Source of the DNA: a virus
Taxonomy: Duplodnaviria > Caudoviricetes
Length of the DNA stretch: 64,000 bases
IMG/VR virus record: IMGVR_UViG_3300029286_000011
Reading direction: 5' to 3' (one strand)
The first letter of the stretch is position 1; every line of letters begins with the position of its first letter. Of this stretch, positions 6,348 to 63,747 are shown piece by piece. The notes below the pieces were generated by a model. That model had not been told where the DNA came from. It made no database searches and saw only the letters and a list, made by a program, of their open reading frames with translations. Position numbers and translations under genes: made by a program.

Positions 6348-6366
6348 ATTGCGACCTGTGATAGCT

Positions 6367-6403
6367 AAAAGAAACGACAGGGGCCGAAGGCACCCCTGTC
6401 GTT
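6367..6403 (-). terminator. Intrinsic terminator
   Basis: Stem AACGACAGGGG/CCCCTGTCGTT followed on the minus strand by TCTTTT then AGCTATCA. Confidence 0.8.
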
Positions 6404-6792: not shown

Positions 6793-7281
6793 CTATCTAC
6801 CGTTTGGGGTTGTGGAGTACCTCAGTCCACCTCCATTTCCAAAGACATTGGTGCTTCCAAACGGATTTGGCACTGTATAAGTGCCGCCGCTGGTCGTCTG
6901 ACCGCCAAACGAATTTGGCGTTGTCCGGCCTTGGTACATACCGGAGCTACTATGGAAATTCTGACCCCCAGAGAAGTTGGGAGTGCTGCTGCCCTGGTAC
7001 ATTCCAGAGCTGCCATAGAAGTTTTGCCCGCCGGAGGAGTTGGGCGTGCTGCGACCTTGGTACATTCCTGAACTTCCGTAGAAGTTCTGGCCCCCGGCCG
7101 AGTTGGTTGTTGTCTGGCCCTGGTACATCCCAGAACTTCCGTAGAAGTTCTGCCCGAAGGACCCACTGTTTCCGAACGCGCTTTGCTGCCCGTTCGCCGT
7201 CGGCAGCAGGACCGTGACCGCAGCCACAACTAATGCAAAGATCGCCAACACACACACCATTCTCAAAACAGAGCCAACCAT
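6793..7281 (-). CDS. Secreted/membrane-anchored protein with 21-aa G/S/N/Y repeats; start revised to 7281
   Basis: GGAGG SD; hydrophobic signal-like N-terminus (VLAIFALVVAAVTVLL); repeats GGQNFYGSSGMYQGxxTxNxx. Confidence 0.75.
   Translation of the reverse strand: MVGSVLRMVCVLAIFALVVAAVTVLLPTANGQQSAFGNSGSFGQNFYGSSGMYQGQTTTNSAGGQNFYGSSGMYQGRSTPNSSGGQNFYGSSGMYQGSSTPNFSGGQNFHSSSGMYQGRTTPNSFGGQTTSGGTYTVPNPFGSTNVFGNGGGLRYSTTPNGR
6899..7157 (-). repeat. About 4 coding tandem repeats of 63 bp
   Basis: Four near-identical GQNF(Y/H)(G/S)SSGMYQG units 21 aa apart. Confidence 0.85.
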
Positions 7282-7340: not shown

Positions 7341-7362
7341 ATTATGCCACGGTAAGCCACAA
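7341..7362 (-). promoter_or_regulatory. Putative promoter TTGTGGCT-N6-GGCATAAT
   Basis: Extended -10-like TGGCATAAT; same 22-nt layout recurs at 57985-58006. Confidence 0.5.
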
Positions 7363-10755: not shown

Positions 10756-11517
10756 TTAGCACCTCGTATGGGCTAGGCCGTTTTTTCCGGCCAGGTAGTG
10801 GTATTGGATGCGGGCCGCGGCCAGGGCGTAGGTGTAGAGGGCCACGCCGAAGATCCGGCCATCGTAATAGGACGTGGCCCCGGCGCCATTGGCCGCAGCG
10901 CCGATTTTCAGCGGACACGTCGCGTTGTAGATCGCGGCGATCGCACCAGCAGCAACCTTCGCGGGCGTTTGCAATACACCATTCACATAGAGCGCGAGGG
11001 TCGTACCGTTCCACGTAAACGCAACGTGGCTCCACTCGCCAACCGTCAGGCTGGCGGTGCTGTTGTACCGCTTGACGTTACTCCCGTAGAGCCCATCAGC
11101 GGAAATGGTCACTTGAAGTTTCGGCGGATTCGACGTCTCGACCTGCATCAGCCAGGACCGCTGATTGATGCTTGAATCGTATTGTCCGCAGATCGACCGA
11201 TTGAAGGTGCTGCCCTGCCTCACCCAGGCTTCCACGGTCATCGCCGAGGATACAGCGATCGCGGCGGAATCGGCGATCGAGACGCATTGGCTCGACCCGT
11301 TGAACGTCGGTGCGCCGGAAGCACTACGGTTGATCGGTCCCGGCATGACGCCCAGAGTTGGCGAACCCACATATGTGCCAGCATTGTTGGTCCCGCGCGC
11401 GGCCAGCATCAGATCCGCAGCCGCTATTCCACTGACCTCGTCGAGCATCCATGCAGCGACCGGCAGACCGCCGTAGGCGGCCTCGCTCAAGATCACGTTG
11501 CGGTAGTCTAGATACAT
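10756..11517 (-). CDS. LamG/concanavalin-A-like lectin domain protein
   Basis: MTVEAWV...GEWSHVAFTWNGTTLALYVNG...LKIG...YYDGRIFGVALY motifs. Confidence 0.85.
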   Translation of the reverse strand: MYLDYRNVILSEAAYGGLPVAAWMLDEVSGIAAADLMLAARGTNNAGTYVGSPTLGVMPGPINRSASGAPTFNGSSQCVSIADSAAIAVSSAMTVEAWVRQGSTFNRSICGQYDSSINQRSWLMQVETSNPPKLQVTISADGLYGSNVKRYNSTASLTVGEWSHVAFTWNGTTLALYVNGVLQTPAKVAAGAIAAIYNATCPLKIGAAANGAGATSYYDGRIFGVALYTYALAAARIQYHYLAGKNGLAHTRC

Positions 11518-11574
11518 CTGCTGCCTCGTTGTGACGCTATCTCAACACATTATAAGCAATAACCCCTGATAGCT

Positions 11575-11602
11575 AAAGAAAAGGCCATGCGACTGCATGG
11601 CC
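11575..11602 (-). terminator. Intrinsic terminator
   Basis: GGCCATGC-AGTC-GCATGGCC followed by TTTTCTTT then AGCTATCA. Confidence 0.85.
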
Positions 11603-11703
11603 CCTTCTACACTTGTGACTCATCCATGAGACTAGCCTCCATGCTAAAACAAATGACGTACAGGTAGGACAGGAGCGTATTAGGTTCCGTACGCCTAGTC
11701 TCC
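11575..11703 (-). ncRNA. Candidate ~130-nt structured small RNA with a 6-codon micro-ORF
   Basis: TGGCATAAT at 11709-11717, internal inverted repeats, terminator at the end; see findings. Confidence 0.4.
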
Positions 11704-11718
11704 TACCTATTATGCCAC

Positions 11719-11979
11719 CTAAACGGTCTGCCGTTCAGGGGCCGTCGTGTGACCGTACTGCTCCAGCAGCGCGGTCAGCGCCTGTCGCGACGCAAGCTGC
11801 AGGCTCCGAGTCTCCTCGAAGACCTCCGGCTCGCTCATCGCCAGATCGGCCAGCTCGTCGATGTTGATGACAAGCTGAGTGACCTTCACGACGACGTCGT
11901 TCGGGACGTCGTCACAAAGTGCCACCTGCCAGTGCCTATGATCGGCGTCTGGCATTTCGCAGTAAACGTCGAGTAGCAT
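11719..11979 (-). CDS. Hypothetical protein (start revised to 11979)
   Basis: AGGAG SD and ACTAGCC leader motif. Confidence 0.65.
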   Translation of the reverse strand: MLLDVYCEMPDADHRHWQVALCDDVPNDVVVKVTQLVINIDELADLAMSEPEVFEETRSLQLASRQALTALLEQYGHTTAPERQTV

Positions 11980-12101
11980 CGTGTTTTCTCCTATTACGAG
12001 GCTAGTTATGCGACACGAAAACGCTGCGTCCCCCATATTCTTTCGGAGGACGCAGCGTATTGGAAGAGAATTTCGCCAGAAAAGTACACAATCTGACGAA
12101 A

Positions 12102-12572
12102 TTATTCTTTGCCAGCTGCCGATTTGGCCCGCTTTGTGATCACGGACCACGCAAAATTGGACAATGCTTTTCCTATGTGCCAGCAAACGAATACCGACAC
12201 CAGTAAGGCACCTAGAGTGCATAGCGAATCGTCACGATTCGAGCCCTCGTTACGCACTACGGCTCGCGTACGAAGGCCGTCCTCCTCTGTTAGAGCCTTG
12301 ACGCTAGAGAAGCGTCCGTTCAGCTCTTGGTTGTTGCTGCTGACGTCAGTAGACAAGTTGTCTAACTTGGCCGATAGGGTGACCAGTCGAGCATCTAGCC
12401 CGCTCATGCGGGCTGCCAAAACGTTGGCCTCATCGCTGATCTTGCCCATCAGCACGTTCTGACCGGACACGACTTGCCCGGTTGTGCGGCCAATGTAGCT
12501 TGCCAGCAGCACAGAGAACAACGCAACAACAACGAGAATTACGGTGGTGTGAATAGCGGACTTGTCATTCAT
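12102..12572 (-). CDS. TM-coiled-coil-TM membrane protein (paralog 3)
   Basis: Hydrophobic N- and C-terminal helices with a heptad-like middle. Confidence 0.75.
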   Translation of the reverse strand: MNDKSAIHTTVILVVVALFSVLLASYIGRTTGQVVSGQNVLMGKISDEANVLAARMSGLDARLVTLSAKLDNLSTDVSSNNQELNGRFSSVKALTEEDGLRTRAVVRNEGSNRDDSLCTLGALLVSVFVCWHIGKALSNFAWSVITKRAKSAAGKE

Positions 12573-12608
12573 CTTGAATCCCCTTGGCTAGTTAGGGCTA
12601 GAGCAAAC

Positions 12609-13184
12609 TCACGAACGTACGGTCAGCTTCTTAATAAGCTGCCATATCTTACGCGACAAGAACTTTAGTGCGTGCCAGCTAACTAGCACGCCGATAAGCA
12701 CGGCAACAGTGAACCATGGAATCTCTTCCGTGCAGGTAACGACATGGTATCTCAGATTGCTTATCGAATCCTTCTGAGACACCAGTCGGTCCAGAATCCG
12801 GTAGTCATGCTCATGAGCCTCCTTCGAAAGAGTCTCGACCGATTTCTGCAGCTGCATGATCATGTCGACCGGAGGTCGTTGATCACGGAGAAGCTTTTTC
12901 ATCTCCTCGTGATCCTCGGCGTATACGCGCGCCGAGTTCTTCAGAAGGTTCTCTAATGCCGTCAACCGGCCTAGGACACTGTACACCTCGTCCAGCACTT
13001 TTTGATTATCGCTGGTAGGTGCTTTGACCGTGTCCGACGGCGCAAACACAGCCGGTGTGATGCAGTCCACGGCGCGATGTTCGCTCTGCTTGAGCCTTTC
13101 AGGCTCACTAGGTGCCAGGGCGTAAAAGCCCACGGCCACCAGTGCCATGACCAACACGACGAACAAGATCTTTTGAGTCTTCAT
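12609..13184 (-). CDS. TM-coiled-coil-TM membrane protein (paralog 2; start revised to 13184)
   Basis: AAGGA SD; same architecture. Confidence 0.75.
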   Translation of the reverse strand: MKTQKILFVVLVMALVAVGFYALAPSEPERLKQSEHRAVDCITPAVFAPSDTVKAPTSDNQKVLDEVYSVLGRLTALENLLKNSARVYAEDHEEMKKLLRDQRPPVDMIMQLQKSVETLSKEAHEHDYRILDRLVSQKDSISNLRYHVVTCTEEIPWFTVAVLIGVLVSWHALKFLSRKIWQLIKKLTVRS

Positions 13185-13226
13185 GAAACATTCCTTTTGG
13201 CTAGTGACGTGATGACAAAACATACG

Positions 13227-13616
13227 TTACGCTGATTGCTTTGCTGCCAACTCTGCTCGTGCCGCCTTCCAGGCACGAATTATGTTGCGTATGCACAGGT
13301 ATACGCCCATAGCAGATAGTATCAACACGGCCGTATTCCATGTCGATTCCTGTACGATCGTGCGTGTATACACATGATCCGATGTCGCCTCCTTAGAGGC
13401 ATTGGATTGTATCTCGCGCCACTTGGCGGCTGTGCTGTGTGTATCTGCCTGCAGCGTTGTAAGCTGCATTCGCACCTCGTTGATGACCTTGTCTCGCTGA
13501 CGTTCAGCGGACATGATCGAATTCAGTGTACTGGTGTTCGACGACACCAACAGCAGTGTACACAAACTCATGGAGACAGTTGCCGTCATGCAGACGGACA
13601 TGTATTTGCTAATCAT
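13227..13616 (-). CDS. TM-coiled-coil-TM membrane protein (paralog 1)
   Basis: AGGAG SD; same architecture. Confidence 0.75.
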   Translation of the reverse strand: MISKYMSVCMTATVSMSLCTLLLVSSNTSTLNSIMSAERQRDKVINEVRMQLTTLQADTHSTAAKWREIQSNASKEATSDHVYTRTIVQESTWNTAVLILSAMGVYLCIRNIIRAWKAARAELAAKQSA

Positions 13617-13649
13617 GACATCTCCTAAGGCTAGTTAGGTGGTGAAAAA

Positions 13650-13772
13650 CTACTGGCTGAGGGACAGCAGGGCCTGCGCCCCGCAGTAAACCGTCCCGGC
13701 CAGAATCAGAAGCTTGACCACCGACATGGCGATCACAGACACCACGCTATCTACGTGAGCTGACTTACGCAT
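13650..13772 (-). CDS. 40-aa hydrophobic peptide (MRKSAHVDSVVSVIAMSVVKLLILAGTVYCGAQALLSLSQ)
   Basis: Hand translated; TAAGGAG SD. Confidence 0.6.
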   Translation of the reverse strand: MRKSAHVDSVVSVIAMSVVKLLILAGTVYCGAQALLSLSQ

Positions 13773-13774
13773 GT

Positions 13775-14764
13775 TTACTCCTTAAAGAGGGCGGGTAGTA
13801 ACTGAACGGCTAGCTCCCGGCTGAGATGCAGCCGGAAGGGTTCGTTGCTGATGATCCCATGTTGAGGGCCGCGCCCAGGGATCTCAGCGACAGTTTCACG
13901 CAGGTCGATACCGTCGTGTAGGGCGGTGAATATGACCTGCTTGGTAGACAGTCGGGATGCAATTGCACCCTTTGTGCTGATGACGACCAGCACATCTGCA
14001 TTCAGGTCGACAGCCGTGGCCTGTAGAATGTGGCTGTCGAACTTGTCGCTGACGTTGGATACGTCCAGCACGGCCCATCGGCGGTCGTACACCGTCGAGA
14101 TGCGCATGCTGTCCAACACGTCTAACGTGTCCCGCACCACAACGTCGTGGTTCAGCGCCATGACATTCAGACGCTTCTCAGCTTCGCGGCCAACCAACAT
14201 GTCCACAAACAGCTGGTAGGCTTCCTGATGGCCGCGCGCATCTTCGCGCTGCAATACGGCCGTCGACCTAACGAATAGCTGGCCGATATCTGAGAAGAGA
14301 TGCAGCTTGGCCGCATAAGACGGCCCGTCCAGCCGCATCGCATCCTCAACCAAATCGACGTAGGTGAGGCCTACGGCGCGCAGTGCTGCAAACAGTCCAT
14401 CGCCGTCGGCGTGAGCGATGATCACATCTTTGTCGCCGATGCAGCCGATATCGATCAGCTGGGCACAGGCTAGAGCGTTCTTACGGGTGACACACAACGC
14501 GTCTACTAACGGCCGTGCCCGTATTAGCTCGTATACGTCATCGTACAACTCGCTGCCGGTATCTGGTTTGTGATGGTCACGTACCATCACCTTGTGCTTC
14601 ATCGCTAGGTCTGAAATCAGATCATGGCACACCACTGGCGACAGATCGGCTATCAGAACCTTGGAGGCACCCTGGCAGCATCGGATCAGTACCGACGATA
14701 TCTGTTCGATTTCAGACGGCTGGACGAACATCGCCAGCGTCTTACGAAGCATTAACGAAAACAT
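13775..14764 (-). CDS. DHH-like phosphoesterase with permuted motif order
   Basis: VLIAD, VRDHH, then HADGDG. Confidence 0.55.
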   Translation of the reverse strand: MFSLMLRKTLAMFVQPSEIEQISSVLIRCCQGASKVLIADLSPVVCHDLISDLAMKHKVMVRDHHKPDTGSELYDDVYELIRARPLVDALCVTRKNALACAQLIDIGCIGDKDVIIAHADGDGLFAALRAVGLTYVDLVEDAMRLDGPSYAAKLHLFSDIGQLFVRSTAVLQREDARGHQEAYQLFVDMLVGREAEKRLNVMALNHDVVVRDTLDVLDSMRISTVYDRRWAVLDVSNVSDKFDSHILQATAVDLNADVLVVISTKGAIASRLSTKQVIFTALHDGIDLRETVAEIPGRGPQHGIISNEPFRLHLSRELAVQLLPALFKE

Positions 14765-14795
14765 GAAAAACTCCTAGGCTAGTGTTGCGATACAT

Positions 14796-14836
14796 AAAAA
14801 AGAAAGACCGACCGGCGTTTGCCAAGTCGGTCTTTC
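14796..14836 (-). terminator. Intrinsic terminator
   Basis: GAAAGACCGAC/GTCGGTCTTTC stem followed by TTTTTT. Confidence 0.8.
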
Positions 14837-14857
14837 CGTGGCGACCTCTGAGTCGGC

Positions 14858-15691
14858 CTACAAGTCGGAATACTTATAGTCGGCTAAGAACGCCAACGCC
14901 GCCTCGCGGCGTTGCGTAGTCGGTTCGTACAGGAACCGGTGCGCCGGACTATCCGACGAAGTATTATGGTTCGACCAGAACGTCCTCAGGTCGAATCCAG
15001 ACTCGGCCATAATGGCTATGTAGTCGTCTAGCCACAAGCCTGCACGCCAGCAGGCTAGCGCATGTGACGATACGCCGTCGCCGGTGTAAATGGCCGGCAT
15101 CATGATGCCTCCATCTTGCTGACGAATAGCCAGCAAAGGGAAGGCCGAAAACGACGTCATGGCCGTCAGAAGAATCTGACAGAGCCCGGCTGCTGGCAAT
15201 GTTGTAGACGCCGGCAGCTGCGCTCCAATGGCCCACAGATCGTTCTGAAGACGGGCCATTGGGTTGTCCTCGAACTTGACCTCGTCGGTTTCCGGGTCAA
15301 GTAGCATGGCATGGCCGTCCGTGACCACCGCATGTACCTGATTGCCAATCAGGCACACCTGTCGCTCTTCCGCCGTCATGGCAGCCAGCTTGGCCATCAG
15401 CTGCTCATGATCATCGAGCCTGTCATGCGACGGCACGGACCCCGTAAGGTCCGTCAGCGGAATGTCCAGACAGGACCAGTTGTTCTGATCCATTGTACGG
15501 ACAACGTCCAGTGAACGACTGCGCATGACAGCCCTGGACAAAGCTGTCAGCGCTTTTGGCAGCATGGTCCTTGGCGCTTGCTGCTGGCTTCTTTCCAAGC
15601 CAACGAGCTTCTCCACCAGCACCGGCATATTGACGATGCTGATGTTCCAGGGCCACCCAAACGGGCGTTCCTTCGCAAGCTTCATACTCAT
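14858..15691 (-). CDS. Hypothetical protein (277 aa)
   Basis: ORF with AAAGGA SD and ACTAGCC leader. Confidence 0.7.
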   Translation of the reverse strand: MSMKLAKERPFGWPWNISIVNMPVLVEKLVGLERSQQQAPRTMLPKALTALSRAVMRSRSLDVVRTMDQNNWSCLDIPLTDLTGSVPSHDRLDDHEQLMAKLAAMTAEERQVCLIGNQVHAVVTDGHAMLLDPETDEVKFEDNPMARLQNDLWAIGAQLPASTTLPAAGLCQILLTAMTSFSAFPLLAIRQQDGGIMMPAIYTGDGVSSHALACWRAGLWLDDYIAIMAESGFDLRTFWSNHNTSSDSPAHRFLYEPTTQRREAALAFLADYKYSDL

Positions 15692-15715
15692 TCCTTTACA
15701 CTAGTGAGGGCTAGT

Positions 15716-16010
15716 AAAAATGGCCTCCGGACGGATCACTAGCCTAATCCGCCGGAGGCCCCACACCACAAAACTCAATAATAGCGCCCTGTTCTGGCTC
15801 CTATGGCCAGCACTCAGGGTCTGTTACCACGGAGTAAAACTGCAAGTTAAGAACGAAGCTAACACACTGGATACCTGTAGGGCAGGCCGGTCAACCGCAA
15901 GCGGTCCACATTTATCGGCGTTCGTTGCCCTAACAGGCTCCAGTGCCAGCGGCAGGAGCCACCGCCGTTGCGACCCCTGTGTAACTTTTTTGCCGAATTA
16001 CACAGAGGTA
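15716..16010 (-). ncRNA. Candidate ~290-nt multi-hairpin non-coding RNA ending in a terminator-like hairpin
   Basis: Five consecutive stems: 15722-15760, 15787-15819, 15874-15937, 15936-15960, 15977-16005. Confidence 0.5.
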
Positions 16011-16022
16011 AGCGCTCCTGAA

Positions 16023-16319
16023 CTACACTCCGTCGTTCCACCAGGCCTGCTGGCTCGGTAGCCACGTGGCCTCCTCGCGCCACGTCCGTCCACCGTTGAC
16101 GTTATCACCGCCCCTGGCCACAAAGTGCGCCGACTTTGACGGGTCGATCACGCGAACAAGGTCCGGACCCGAAACGAATCCGTTGTCGCGGACTCCTTCG
16201 GTGACGCAGTTGATGCAGCAGAACACTTGACCCCAGCAGGCACCGCTGCCGAAGTAGGAGCGGCCGTAGATGTGCCCTAACTCCCGCGTCAGGACTACCT
16301 CTTGTACGTTCGTTGACAT
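16023..16319 (-). CDS. Hypothetical protein (start revised to 16319)
   Basis: AAAGGA SD and ACTAGCC leader. Confidence 0.65.
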   Translation of the reverse strand: MSTNVQEVVLTRELGHIYGRSYFGSGACWGQVFCCINCVTEGVRDNGFVSGPDLVRVIDPSKSAHFVARGGDNVNGGRTWREEATWLPSQQAWWNDGV

Positions 16320-16588
16320 CGCAAAATTCCTTTGGCTAGTGACTATAAACACAAAACAGACCGAAAGGTCTGATAATTGGCGCCTGCCGCAAGTAGGGAG
16401 ACCTACGGCAGGTTCGTTGCACAGGTACCGTAGCAGGCCTGGAGTTATCCAAGCCTCCACAGCGTAAAAGCAACGAAGGACTGCAATGCCGGACTGCAGT
16501 CATAAGATGGCAGCGACCTCAGAACTATGTCCGGTCGCCGCGTATTAAGGCGGTACTAAGCTAAAGTCGATATGCCAAGGAGATTGGA

Positions 16589-16614
16589 AGATGTAATTAG
16601 CGCTAATTACATCT
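16589..16614. repeat. Perfect 26-bp palindrome AGATGTAATTAGCGCTAATTACATCT (copy 2)
   Basis: Read directly; intergenic. Confidence 0.95.
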
Positions 16615-16691
16615 CTGATCCGTGGCAGCGACGATAGCTAGTTAGCGCCTCCAATATAGTATGACGCGTTTTGGGCCTTTATTTACCAATG

Positions 16692-16739
16692 AAAAAAGCC
16701 GGCAGGTGCCTCATGCACCCACCGGCTTTGCCAACCTTC
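16692..16739 (-). terminator. Intrinsic terminator closing the capsid operon
   Basis: AAAGCCGG...CCGGCTTT stem followed by T-tract. Confidence 0.75.
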
Positions 16740-16747
16740 CGTGGTTG

Positions 16748-17101
16748 TCAGACGCGGTATTCCATCTCCGAATCGGTCAGGCTCGTAAGCCAGCACGGTG
16801 CGGCGACAGCCAGCGTGTTGTTATTCAGCACGAGCATCTGGGACTGATCCAGAGTAGCATCGTACAGAATAGGAGCAGGAGTCGACACAAGCTCAAGCCA
16901 CCCAGCTTCGAGGGCCTCGAAGAACTTCTGCACGCCACGGGCGCCGAAGATCCGACCAATGGTATCGACGACATGGCCGCTAATCGAGACTTCCTCGTTG
17001 TTGTCCAGCTCAGCCCCGTGGGGCGGCACAATGCTAATCTTGCGCTTCGAGCCGGCAACATTGCGAATGGTGGACACCAAACAGCTGATATCAACAGCCA
17101 T
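16748..17101 (-). CDS. Hypothetical virion-associated protein (117 aa)
   Basis: GGAGG SD; in the capsid operon. Confidence 0.65.
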   Translation of the reverse strand: MAVDISCLVSTIRNVAGSKRKISIVPPHGAELDNNEEVSISGHVVDTIGRIFGARGVQKFFEALEAGWLELVSTPAPILYDATLDQSQMLVLNNNTLAVAAPCWLTSLTDSEMEYRV

Positions 17102-52554: not shown

Positions 52555-52732
52555 AAACTATCTCCAAATAGGTACTTACAGCCGCATCCATGCCTTTTGT
52601 GCTGCCCTGCAGAGCTAAATGCTCTGAATACTATACCAGCTTGGGGCCTGCTATCAAGTGGAACAAGCAGAGCCAATAGGCGTATATATGAAAAGTTGAT
52701 AATTTGCGTAGGCTGCTGAATCTCTGATAGCT

Positions 52733-52767
52733 AAAAAAGAGGGGCACTGGCTTTCGCCAGCCCCCTC
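52733..52767 (-). terminator. Intrinsic terminator after csrA
   Basis: GC stem with GAAA tetraloop, then TTTTTT and AGCTATCAG. Confidence 0.85.
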
Positions 52768-63711: not shown

Positions 63712-63747
63712 TACCATGCGTTACGTTCAGAACACGAACACAGGAGA

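Follow-up and report, generated by a model that had tools for sequence, protein, structure and literature searches.

The mapping of regulation by bacterial 3'UTRs, and of small RNAs (sRNAs) encoded by phages, is only beginning. Within a single bacterial mRNA, pairing between the 5'UTR and the 3'UTR has been described for icaR of S. aureus (PMC3868564) and hbs of B. subtilis (PMC5737220), and 3'UTR-derived sRNAs that have their own promoter and a terminator in common with the mRNA form the DapZ/MicL type (reviewed in PMC9438474). In T4-type phages, PeSL cassettes consist of a stop codon and a sigma70-like promoter overlapped by a stem-loop, occur in ORFan-rich regions, and have been proposed to keep early ORFan transcription from entering virion genes (Arbiol et al. 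2010, PMC2839356). Here we consider an intergenic element with partial likeness to each of these, located in a 64,000-nt window (bases 102258-166257) of the 185-kb IMG/VR record of a lake phage (53% G+C, 89% complete). About 170 of the 176 called genes of this phage lie on the - strand (the gene strand), and coordinates below are those of the window unless marked as genome coordinates. The element fills the 201-nt gap between the gene for an acidic 86-aa ORFan protein (11979-11719, -), the last of seven genes with an ACTAGCC leader, and the gene for a 253-aa virion-type protein (Laminin_G_3; 11517-10756, -), the first of a run of large structural genes.

The reading that we favour, tentatively and at less than even confidence, is that the element is a regulatory 3'UTR that pairs with the ACUAGCC leader of its own mRNA, that it is probably also made as a ~125-nt RNA, and that its leader complement (the anti-box) lies over consensus CsrA sites. 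As in icaR and hbs, a short stretch within a 3'UTR of more than 100 nt is perfectly complementary to the leader of the same mRNA beside the Shine-Dalgarno (SD) sequence, and the intramolecular duplex that is predicted would influence the access of ribosomes or attack by RNases. The element differs from both in that the target of the complement is not the SD itself but a box 5 nt upstream of it, that this box is common to seven genes, that the setting is a phage, that there is no homology, and that the pairing is here predicted from sequence. Its likeness to the DapZ/MicL type consists of a promoter box at the end of the upstream coding sequence, a common terminator, and a predicted product of ~125 nt, whereas its seed is not exposed in the predicted fold and no Hfq is known here. 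The resembled mechanisms (icaR/hbs-type UTR pairing, 3'UTR-derived sRNAs, and Csr decoys) are known; their combination and the phage setting would be new. If the closure of the mRNA is real, its small size (9 nt), its occurrence in two independent cassettes, and its defined protein competitor would make it a compact example that lends itself to testing, and if the reading is true, a large uncultured phage would time or limit its accessory membrane-protein genes without transcription factors.

Predicted pairing of the 3'UTR with its own leader

The initial annotation had noted ACUAGCC(UC) leaders in seven upstream genes, and in the present analysis ACTAGCC lies directly 5' of the SD in seven genes between 12000 and 16340 (19 copies in the window against 6.0 expected, the remaining genome copies being genic). 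In the 86-aa gene, the leader box ACUAGCCUC (12006-11998, -) lies 8-14 nt past the T-run of the preceding terminator (12058-12021) and is separated by 5 nt from the SD AGGAG (11992-11988) that follows. The annotated anti-motif GAGGCTAGT was likewise found by direct reading at 11639-11631 (-), giving the anti-box GAGGCUAGU, which is complementary over 9 nt to the leader of the 11979 gene, as had been claimed, and over 7-8 nt to the other six leaders. Only two copies of GGCTAGT occur in the 7.4 kb of intergenic gene-strand sequence, and both are inside the ACTAGCC cluster; the second (15744-15738) is in a terminator loop, where the anti-box spans 15744-15736. Two DNA-level explanations of the inverted copies were dropped: transposon-like terminal inverted repeats, because the right copy of the second unit sits within a terminator loop, and an antisense promoter, because the inverted copy has no upstream T-run.

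Besides any RNA of its own, the element constitutes the 3'UTR of the 86-aa gene, 141 nt from stop codon to terminator (11718-11578). The complete mRNA (12006-11578, 429 nt) has a minimum free energy (MFE) of -204.2 kcal/mol (z -8.68 against 100 dinucleotide shuffles), below all 204 sampled 429-nt windows of the genome and 4.1 sd below expectation after correction for GC content. In both the MFE and the centroid structure, ACUAGCCUC (12006-11998) is paired with GAGGCUAGU (11639-11631). The probability of this pair is 0.73-0.999 across three choices of 5' end, values that are optimistic because nearest-neighbour energy models under-penalise the closure of very long loops, here one of 370 nt. Forbidding the box/anti-box pairing costs 7.5 kcal/mol of ensemble energy. 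From this duplex, weaker U-rich pairing (UAGGA:UUUUA and AAA:UUU) continues across the SD of the 86-aa gene, and the accessibility of the SD with and without the tail changes only moderately.

We then considered how often such a complement arises by chance. A 9-nt match between the 41-nt leader and its own 141-nt 3'UTR was reached in 52 of 3,000 dinucleotide shuffles (P = 0.017). Likewise, in the unit whose gene starts at 16319, 9 nt are complementary to that gene's leader (UCACUAGCC, in this case against the terminator loop; 91 of 3,000 shuffles, P = 0.030). The proteins of these two units are unrelated, as are their UTRs, and the two complements are therefore independent, with a joint probability of about 5e-4, although the single P values are post hoc. 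No other single-gene unit in the cluster has a 3'UTR of more than 100 nt. That this layout recurs in two units speaks for each tail pairing with the leader of its own mRNA, and the leader complementarity of the 3'UTR is a better fit to such cis pairing than to an sRNA acting in trans. Cis pairing is impossible if ACTAGCC is an untranscribed DNA promoter or initiator and the mRNA starts downstream of the box.

As we picture it, the mRNA of the 86-aa gene would start with the ACTAGCC leader (12006) and stop at the terminator (~11578), so that its tail ends the accessory region before the virion genes begin, and thermodynamic folding predicts that the box/anti-box duplex would close this 429-nt RNA into a panhandle. 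Closure of 5' and 3' ends may tune the start of translation, protect the ends of the mRNA, or both, as in icaR and hbs. With a promoter box at the stop codon, the tail is probably also made as a separate RNA of ~125 nt that has the terminator in common with the mRNA and could reach other ACUAGCC leaders in trans. CsrA of the phage or its host, bound to hairpins at the anti-box, would compete with box/anti-box pairing and so create a CsrA-responsive switch.

The extreme structure of this mRNA might suggest that the 86-aa ORF is not coding at all, but this was ruled out and the ORF was kept as coding because its codon usage is normal: it scores 0.171 per codon in frame, compared with a genome mean of 0.16, and the other frames are at or below zero (0.002 to -0.47 per codon). 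Its sole homologue among 5.8 billion proteins is a 47-aa fragment on an 879-nt contig, which is 95% identical over the first 40 residues and then diverges and ends; this pattern suggests that a near relative carries an indel or that the assembly contains an error. No lead on the function of the 86-aa protein came from the ESM Atlas, and none of the seven cluster proteins had a Pfam or PHROGs match. Structure-rich mRNAs are found throughout the ACTAGCC accessory region (11450-16830), where the GC-corrected MFE residuals of 429-nt windows range from -0.4 to -4 sd, while most of those for the structural genes on either side are close to zero or positive (overall range about -1.7 to +2.5 sd). One example is a 15-bp hairpin, GACGACGUC...GACGUCGUC, within the coding sequence of the 86-aa gene.

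Usable relatives were sought with several seeds. None was found by blastn against 50,697 phage records or by exact-pattern scans of IMG/VR with the seed region and the 18-nt palindrome of the genome. Searches of viral and metagenome contigs with the 253-aa neighbour returned only Laminin-G matches of 24-35% identity, and the 415-aa head-region protein, RNAP beta, and the 329-aa cluster protein likewise led to no relative. The phage is a singleton in every collection searched. The element had no Rfam match at E<=10, and two tRNAs were the only gathering-level Rfam matches in the whole genome.

Predicted promoter and terminator modules at the border of the virion genes

Two bases past the TAG stop codon of the 86-aa gene (11721-11719, -, by direct reading), the extended -10 box TGGCATAAT is present where it had been annotated (11717-11709, -), within GTGGCATAAT and with a predicted start near 11703-11701. 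The 10-mer GTGGCATAAT has three gene-strand copies compared with ~0.18 expected, and all three are intergenic: the one described here, one at 7349, and one at genome position 64013. The copy at 7349, 22 nt past a stop codon, lies ahead of a gene for a 162-aa secreted repeat protein, which it is predicted to drive. That protein (6793-7281, -) contains four GGQNFYGSSGMYQG repeats and was overlooked by the codon-usage gene caller. The copy at genome position 64013 is followed by a structured non-coding stretch of 265 nt (-123 kcal/mol), a terminator, and a gene. Kindred boxes (GGGCATAAT, TGGTATAGT, and TGTCATAAT) occur in other gaps, several of them followed by a GGTAG...YTAG motif. A palindromic core, CATAATATTATG (genome 20100-20170), places -10-like boxes back to back on both strands, each with a terminator-like hairpin within 10-20 nt downstream.

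At the other end of the element, the strong terminator that had been proposed also stands (11606-11575, -). Its stem, GGGGCCAUGC / GCAUGGCC(UU), encloses an AGUC loop and is followed by the U-tract UUUUCUUU; the hairpin at 11606-11579 with its U-tract has a free energy of -18.3 kcal/mol (z -4.95). The terminator runs into the tail motif TTTAGCTATCAG (11577-11566, -), which recurs directly past at least five other terminators, including that of the CsrA gene. In the more general form TTTAG(C/G)TATCA(G/C), the motif directly follows the U-tract of at least six terminators (11566-11577, 52724-52735, and 6358-6369 in the window; 63724-63735, about 18440, and 20151, the last on the + strand, in the genome). 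We rejected TTTAGCTATCAG as a -35 box because its other copies are not followed by a -10 at the right distance. A simple promoter/terminator scan flagged neither end of the element, the promoter because its -35 is poor and the terminator because its stem absorbs part of the T-run.

Because the modules at both ends, -10 box and terminator tail, recur in intergenic DNA, the discrete promoter-to-terminator unit of ~125 nt put forward by the initial annotation is plausible, with the qualification that it is predicted from sequence and that its -35 is poor. The intervening body has no second copy in the genome; recurrence is confined to the -10 box and the terminator tail and does not extend to the cassette as a whole. 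Apart from the terminator, the sole well-defined local structure is hairpin H1 (AUAGGUAGGAG...CUCCUGUCCUACCU; 11710-11660, -; -21.3 kcal/mol, z -3.15). Because the 5' arm of H1 starts within the -10 box, ahead of where the sRNA is predicted to begin, H1 is complete only in RNA coming from the 86-aa gene, which fits a read-through mRNA.

The next best account is that of a plain boundary cassette without an RNA-regulatory role, which we regard as a serious rival, if on the unlikely side. One or two promoter boxes would stand beside a terminator that keeps accessory transcription out of the virion genes, much as in PeSLs, and chance, or the remains of a lost gene start (an empty moron), would account for the anti-box, the mini-ORF, and the GGA hairpins. 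A second -10-like box, TATAAT (11554-11549, -), lies 32 nt before the start (11517) of the 253-aa gene, for which we infer that it serves as a promoter. The recurrence of promoter box and terminator tail agrees with this account, as does the border between ORFan and virion genes, the place that PeSLs are said to guard, and so does the position of H1 over the -10 box and start site, as in one PeSL subclass (PMC2839356). Moreover, the body of the RNA is structured no more than its shuffles, the start site GGAGG-N8-ATG resembles the usual CA(C/U)GGAGG-N5-9-ATG starts of the phage, as a relic would, and every statistical signal in the element is only about 0.02. However, this account leaves to chance two independent 9-nt complements to own leaders in unrelated 3'UTRs of one cluster (the joint probability given above), the exceptional stability of the whole mRNA, and tandem consensus CsrA hairpins that occur nowhere else in 185 kb.

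For the promoter and H1 half of the element, the PeSL cassette is the closest known object. Both have a stop codon followed by a sigma70-like -10 box (here 11717-11709) overlapped by a stem-loop (here H1, 11710-11660), both lie in an ORFan-rich plastic region, in this case at the border of the virion genes, and in both motifs are repeated in the genome. The phage is not of the T4 type (no T4-like matches were found in its genome), its -35 is poor, H1 itself is not repeated, and, unlike in PeSLs, H1 is followed by another 80 nt, which include the anti-box and a strong, separate terminator. If the element is a boundary cassette only, modular regulatory cassettes similar to PeSLs would exist in a phage lineage unrelated to T4.

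CsrA-type hairpins and the mini-ORF

The three A-N-GGA motifs noted initially are present (ACGGA at 11690-11686, AUGGA at 11642-11638, and AUGGA at 11627-11623), a modest enrichment over the 0.46 expected per 124 nt. So is the mini-ORF: a GGAGG SD (11640-11636) is followed after 8 nt by an ATG at 11627 that opens MDESQV, with the stop codon TAG at 11609-11607 (ORF with stop, 11627-11607, -) ending 2-3 nt short of the terminator stem. Initiation at an upstream ATG in the same frame (11642) would extend the product to MEASLMDESQV. The stretch AGCAUGGAGGCU-AGU-CUCAUGGAUGAG (11645-11619) can form two short-stem hexaloop hairpins. The first, AGC-AUGGAG-GCU (11645-11634, -), includes the mini-ORF's GGAGG SD as well as part of the anti-box, and the second, CUC-AUGGAU-GAG (11630-11619, -), covers the start codon. 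Compared with the RsmE/CsrA consensus (A/U)CANGGANG(U/A) (as quoted in PMC6849547), hairpin 2 (UCAUGGAUGA) is a full match and hairpin 1 (CAUGGAGG) matches the core. Because hairpin 1 overlaps the anti-box, binding of CsrA and pairing with the leader would be mutually exclusive.

A scan of the whole genome for a 3-bp stem with an A-N-GGA-N loop gave 49 gene-strand sites; when both strands were considered, the pair in the element was the only tandem pair with a spacing of 12-30 nt. Block shuffles yield 0.19 such pairs per genome strand, and the uniqueness of the pair is suggestive only, because the pattern was defined after it had been seen. The phage encodes a CsrA of its own (52971-52792, -; PF02599, 78 bits), whose sequence looks intact (MLVLTR...VRLGISAP...ILREE). 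CANGGANG occurs 106 times on the gene strand and 42 times on the other, a 2.5-fold difference. The longer motif CACGGAGG has 10 gene-strand copies and one on the other strand; 9 of the 10 are SDs (N5-8 to the ATG), mostly of head and tail genes (1841, 4701, 17115, 18643, 19283, and 43720 in the window; 17104, 50012, and 80836 in the genome; all -). In sequence, CACGGAGG fits the CsrA consensus CANGGANG rather than an extended complement to the anti-SD, and the start of the mini-ORF, CAUGGAGG-N8-AUG, is of the same type.

A role as a CsrA-binding RNA is therefore worth weighing, either as a ~125-nt decoy that titrates phage or host CsrA from CsrA-like start sites, or with the start of the mini-ORF as one more CsrA-repressed site; taken alone, we think it unlikely. 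The two hairpins place GGA motifs 15 nt apart, each in a hexaloop on a 3-4-bp stem, a third ANGGA sits in a hairpin loop, and the CACGGAGG start sites, most of them in head and tail genes, would offer something to titrate CsrA from. Like CsrB and RsmX/Y/Z, the element has short hairpin loops with GGA motifs matching CANGGANG, ends in a Rho-independent terminator, and is accompanied by a CsrA gene in the same genome. It differs from them in being phage-encoded, in holding only 3-4 motifs where known sponges have 5-22, and in having no Rfam similarity (none to CsrB, RsmX, RsmY, or RsmZ even at E<=10). The low motif count and the lack of family similarity argue against such a role, as do the weakness of the hairpins, which are thermodynamically unremarkable (z 0.1), and the chance frequency and post hoc definition of the tandem pair. 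The CsrA role first suggested for the element gains support from the two consensus hairpins, their uniqueness as a pair, and the intact CsrA, whereas the small number of ANGGA motifs and the weak hairpins count against it. To our knowledge, no CsrA of a phage has been described that has an RNA partner encoded by a phage.

Two further sites are similar in sequence. The 5'UTR of the gene directly downstream of the CsrA gene (52585-52600, -) contains GCAUGGAUGC, another CANGGANG hairpin behind a TGGTATAGT box, and a 323-nt gap (genome about 179337, -) contains UACAUGGAUGUA, near the CsrA SELEX consensus, followed by another AUGGA.

Pairing in trans and attenuation as less likely readings

In the initial annotation, the element was read as an independent sRNA that co-regulates the cluster in trans by pairing its seed GAGGCUAGU with all seven ACUAGCC leaders, which now appears improbable. 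It is true that the ~125-nt unit is bounded by a recurring promoter box and a strong terminator, that a perfect 7-9-nt complement adjoins the SD in every leader, and that both intergenic copies of GGCTAGT are in the cluster. Whole-sequence duplex energies were meaningless (-30 kcal/mol for every leader) and were replaced by a windowed scan, in which 14-nt windows of the RNA were compared with 177 leaders by hybrid and opening energies. With opening energies included, only the 11979 leader ranks high (net energy -7.9 kcal/mol), many unrelated leaders pair equally well or better, and the cluster leaders as a set are indistinguishable from the 177. The seed is moreover largely sequestered, as its CUAG core is paired with a probability of about 0.8-0.9 in the free RNA (unpaired probability 0.06-0.29), and the phage does not encode Hfq.

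The fold that had been proposed for this sRNA did not hold up either. The RNA from 11703 to 11607 folds no better than its shuffles (MFE z = +0.99), with a diffuse ensemble. The two arms of the 8-bp long-range stem exist (GAGACTAG at 11702-11695 and CTAGTCTC at 11635-11628), but the stem forms for only one of the tested choices of 5' and 3' ends. The inner hairpin (GCGTA at 11694-11690, TACGC at 11679-11675, loop CGGAACCTAA) can likewise be read from the sequence; its stability alone is marginal, and it is held, together with the ACGGA loop, within H1.

A wider arrangement would join the two layers into a post-transcriptional circuit run by the phage, in which CsrA would act on the CACGGAGG start sites of head and tail genes, and two anti-box RNAs (the present 3'UTR or sRNA, and the terminator loop at 15744-15736) would close or silence the ACUAGCC leaders, whose box would mark a set of accessory genes. 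The layers would be linked in this scheme because CsrA binding and leader pairing would be mutually exclusive in the element. We regard a circuit of this extent as more improbable still.

Transcriptional attenuation has precedents in lambda PR'-tR' (6S RNA) and in pyrBI-type coupling. Least probable of all, and very much so, is an attenuator for the virion genes, with a leader from the promoter at 11717 that stops at the terminator unless translation of the mini-ORF or an antiterminator permits read-through: the order of promoter, ~125-nt leader, and strong terminator just upstream of virion genes is present, as in lambda, the second genomic unit that starts with GTGGCATAAT (genome 64013-63735) repeats the layout, and the mini-ORF has a start site of the strong type of the phage, but in contrast to lambda a search for Q-type antiterminators found none (neither PF06530 nor PF03589 occurs in the 185-kb record, itself 89% complete), the alternative pairing GCAUGG:CCAUGC has only 6 bp and is absent from all predicted folds, a second -10-like box follows the terminator, and the second unit has no leader ORF.

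That second unit (genome 63735-64013, -) has no Rfam match. Its 265-nt RNA carries the tandem repeat GGGCGCCTCTATAACTA, and its 3' part consists, in order, of the terminator, TTTAGGTATCAC, an SD, and the gene.
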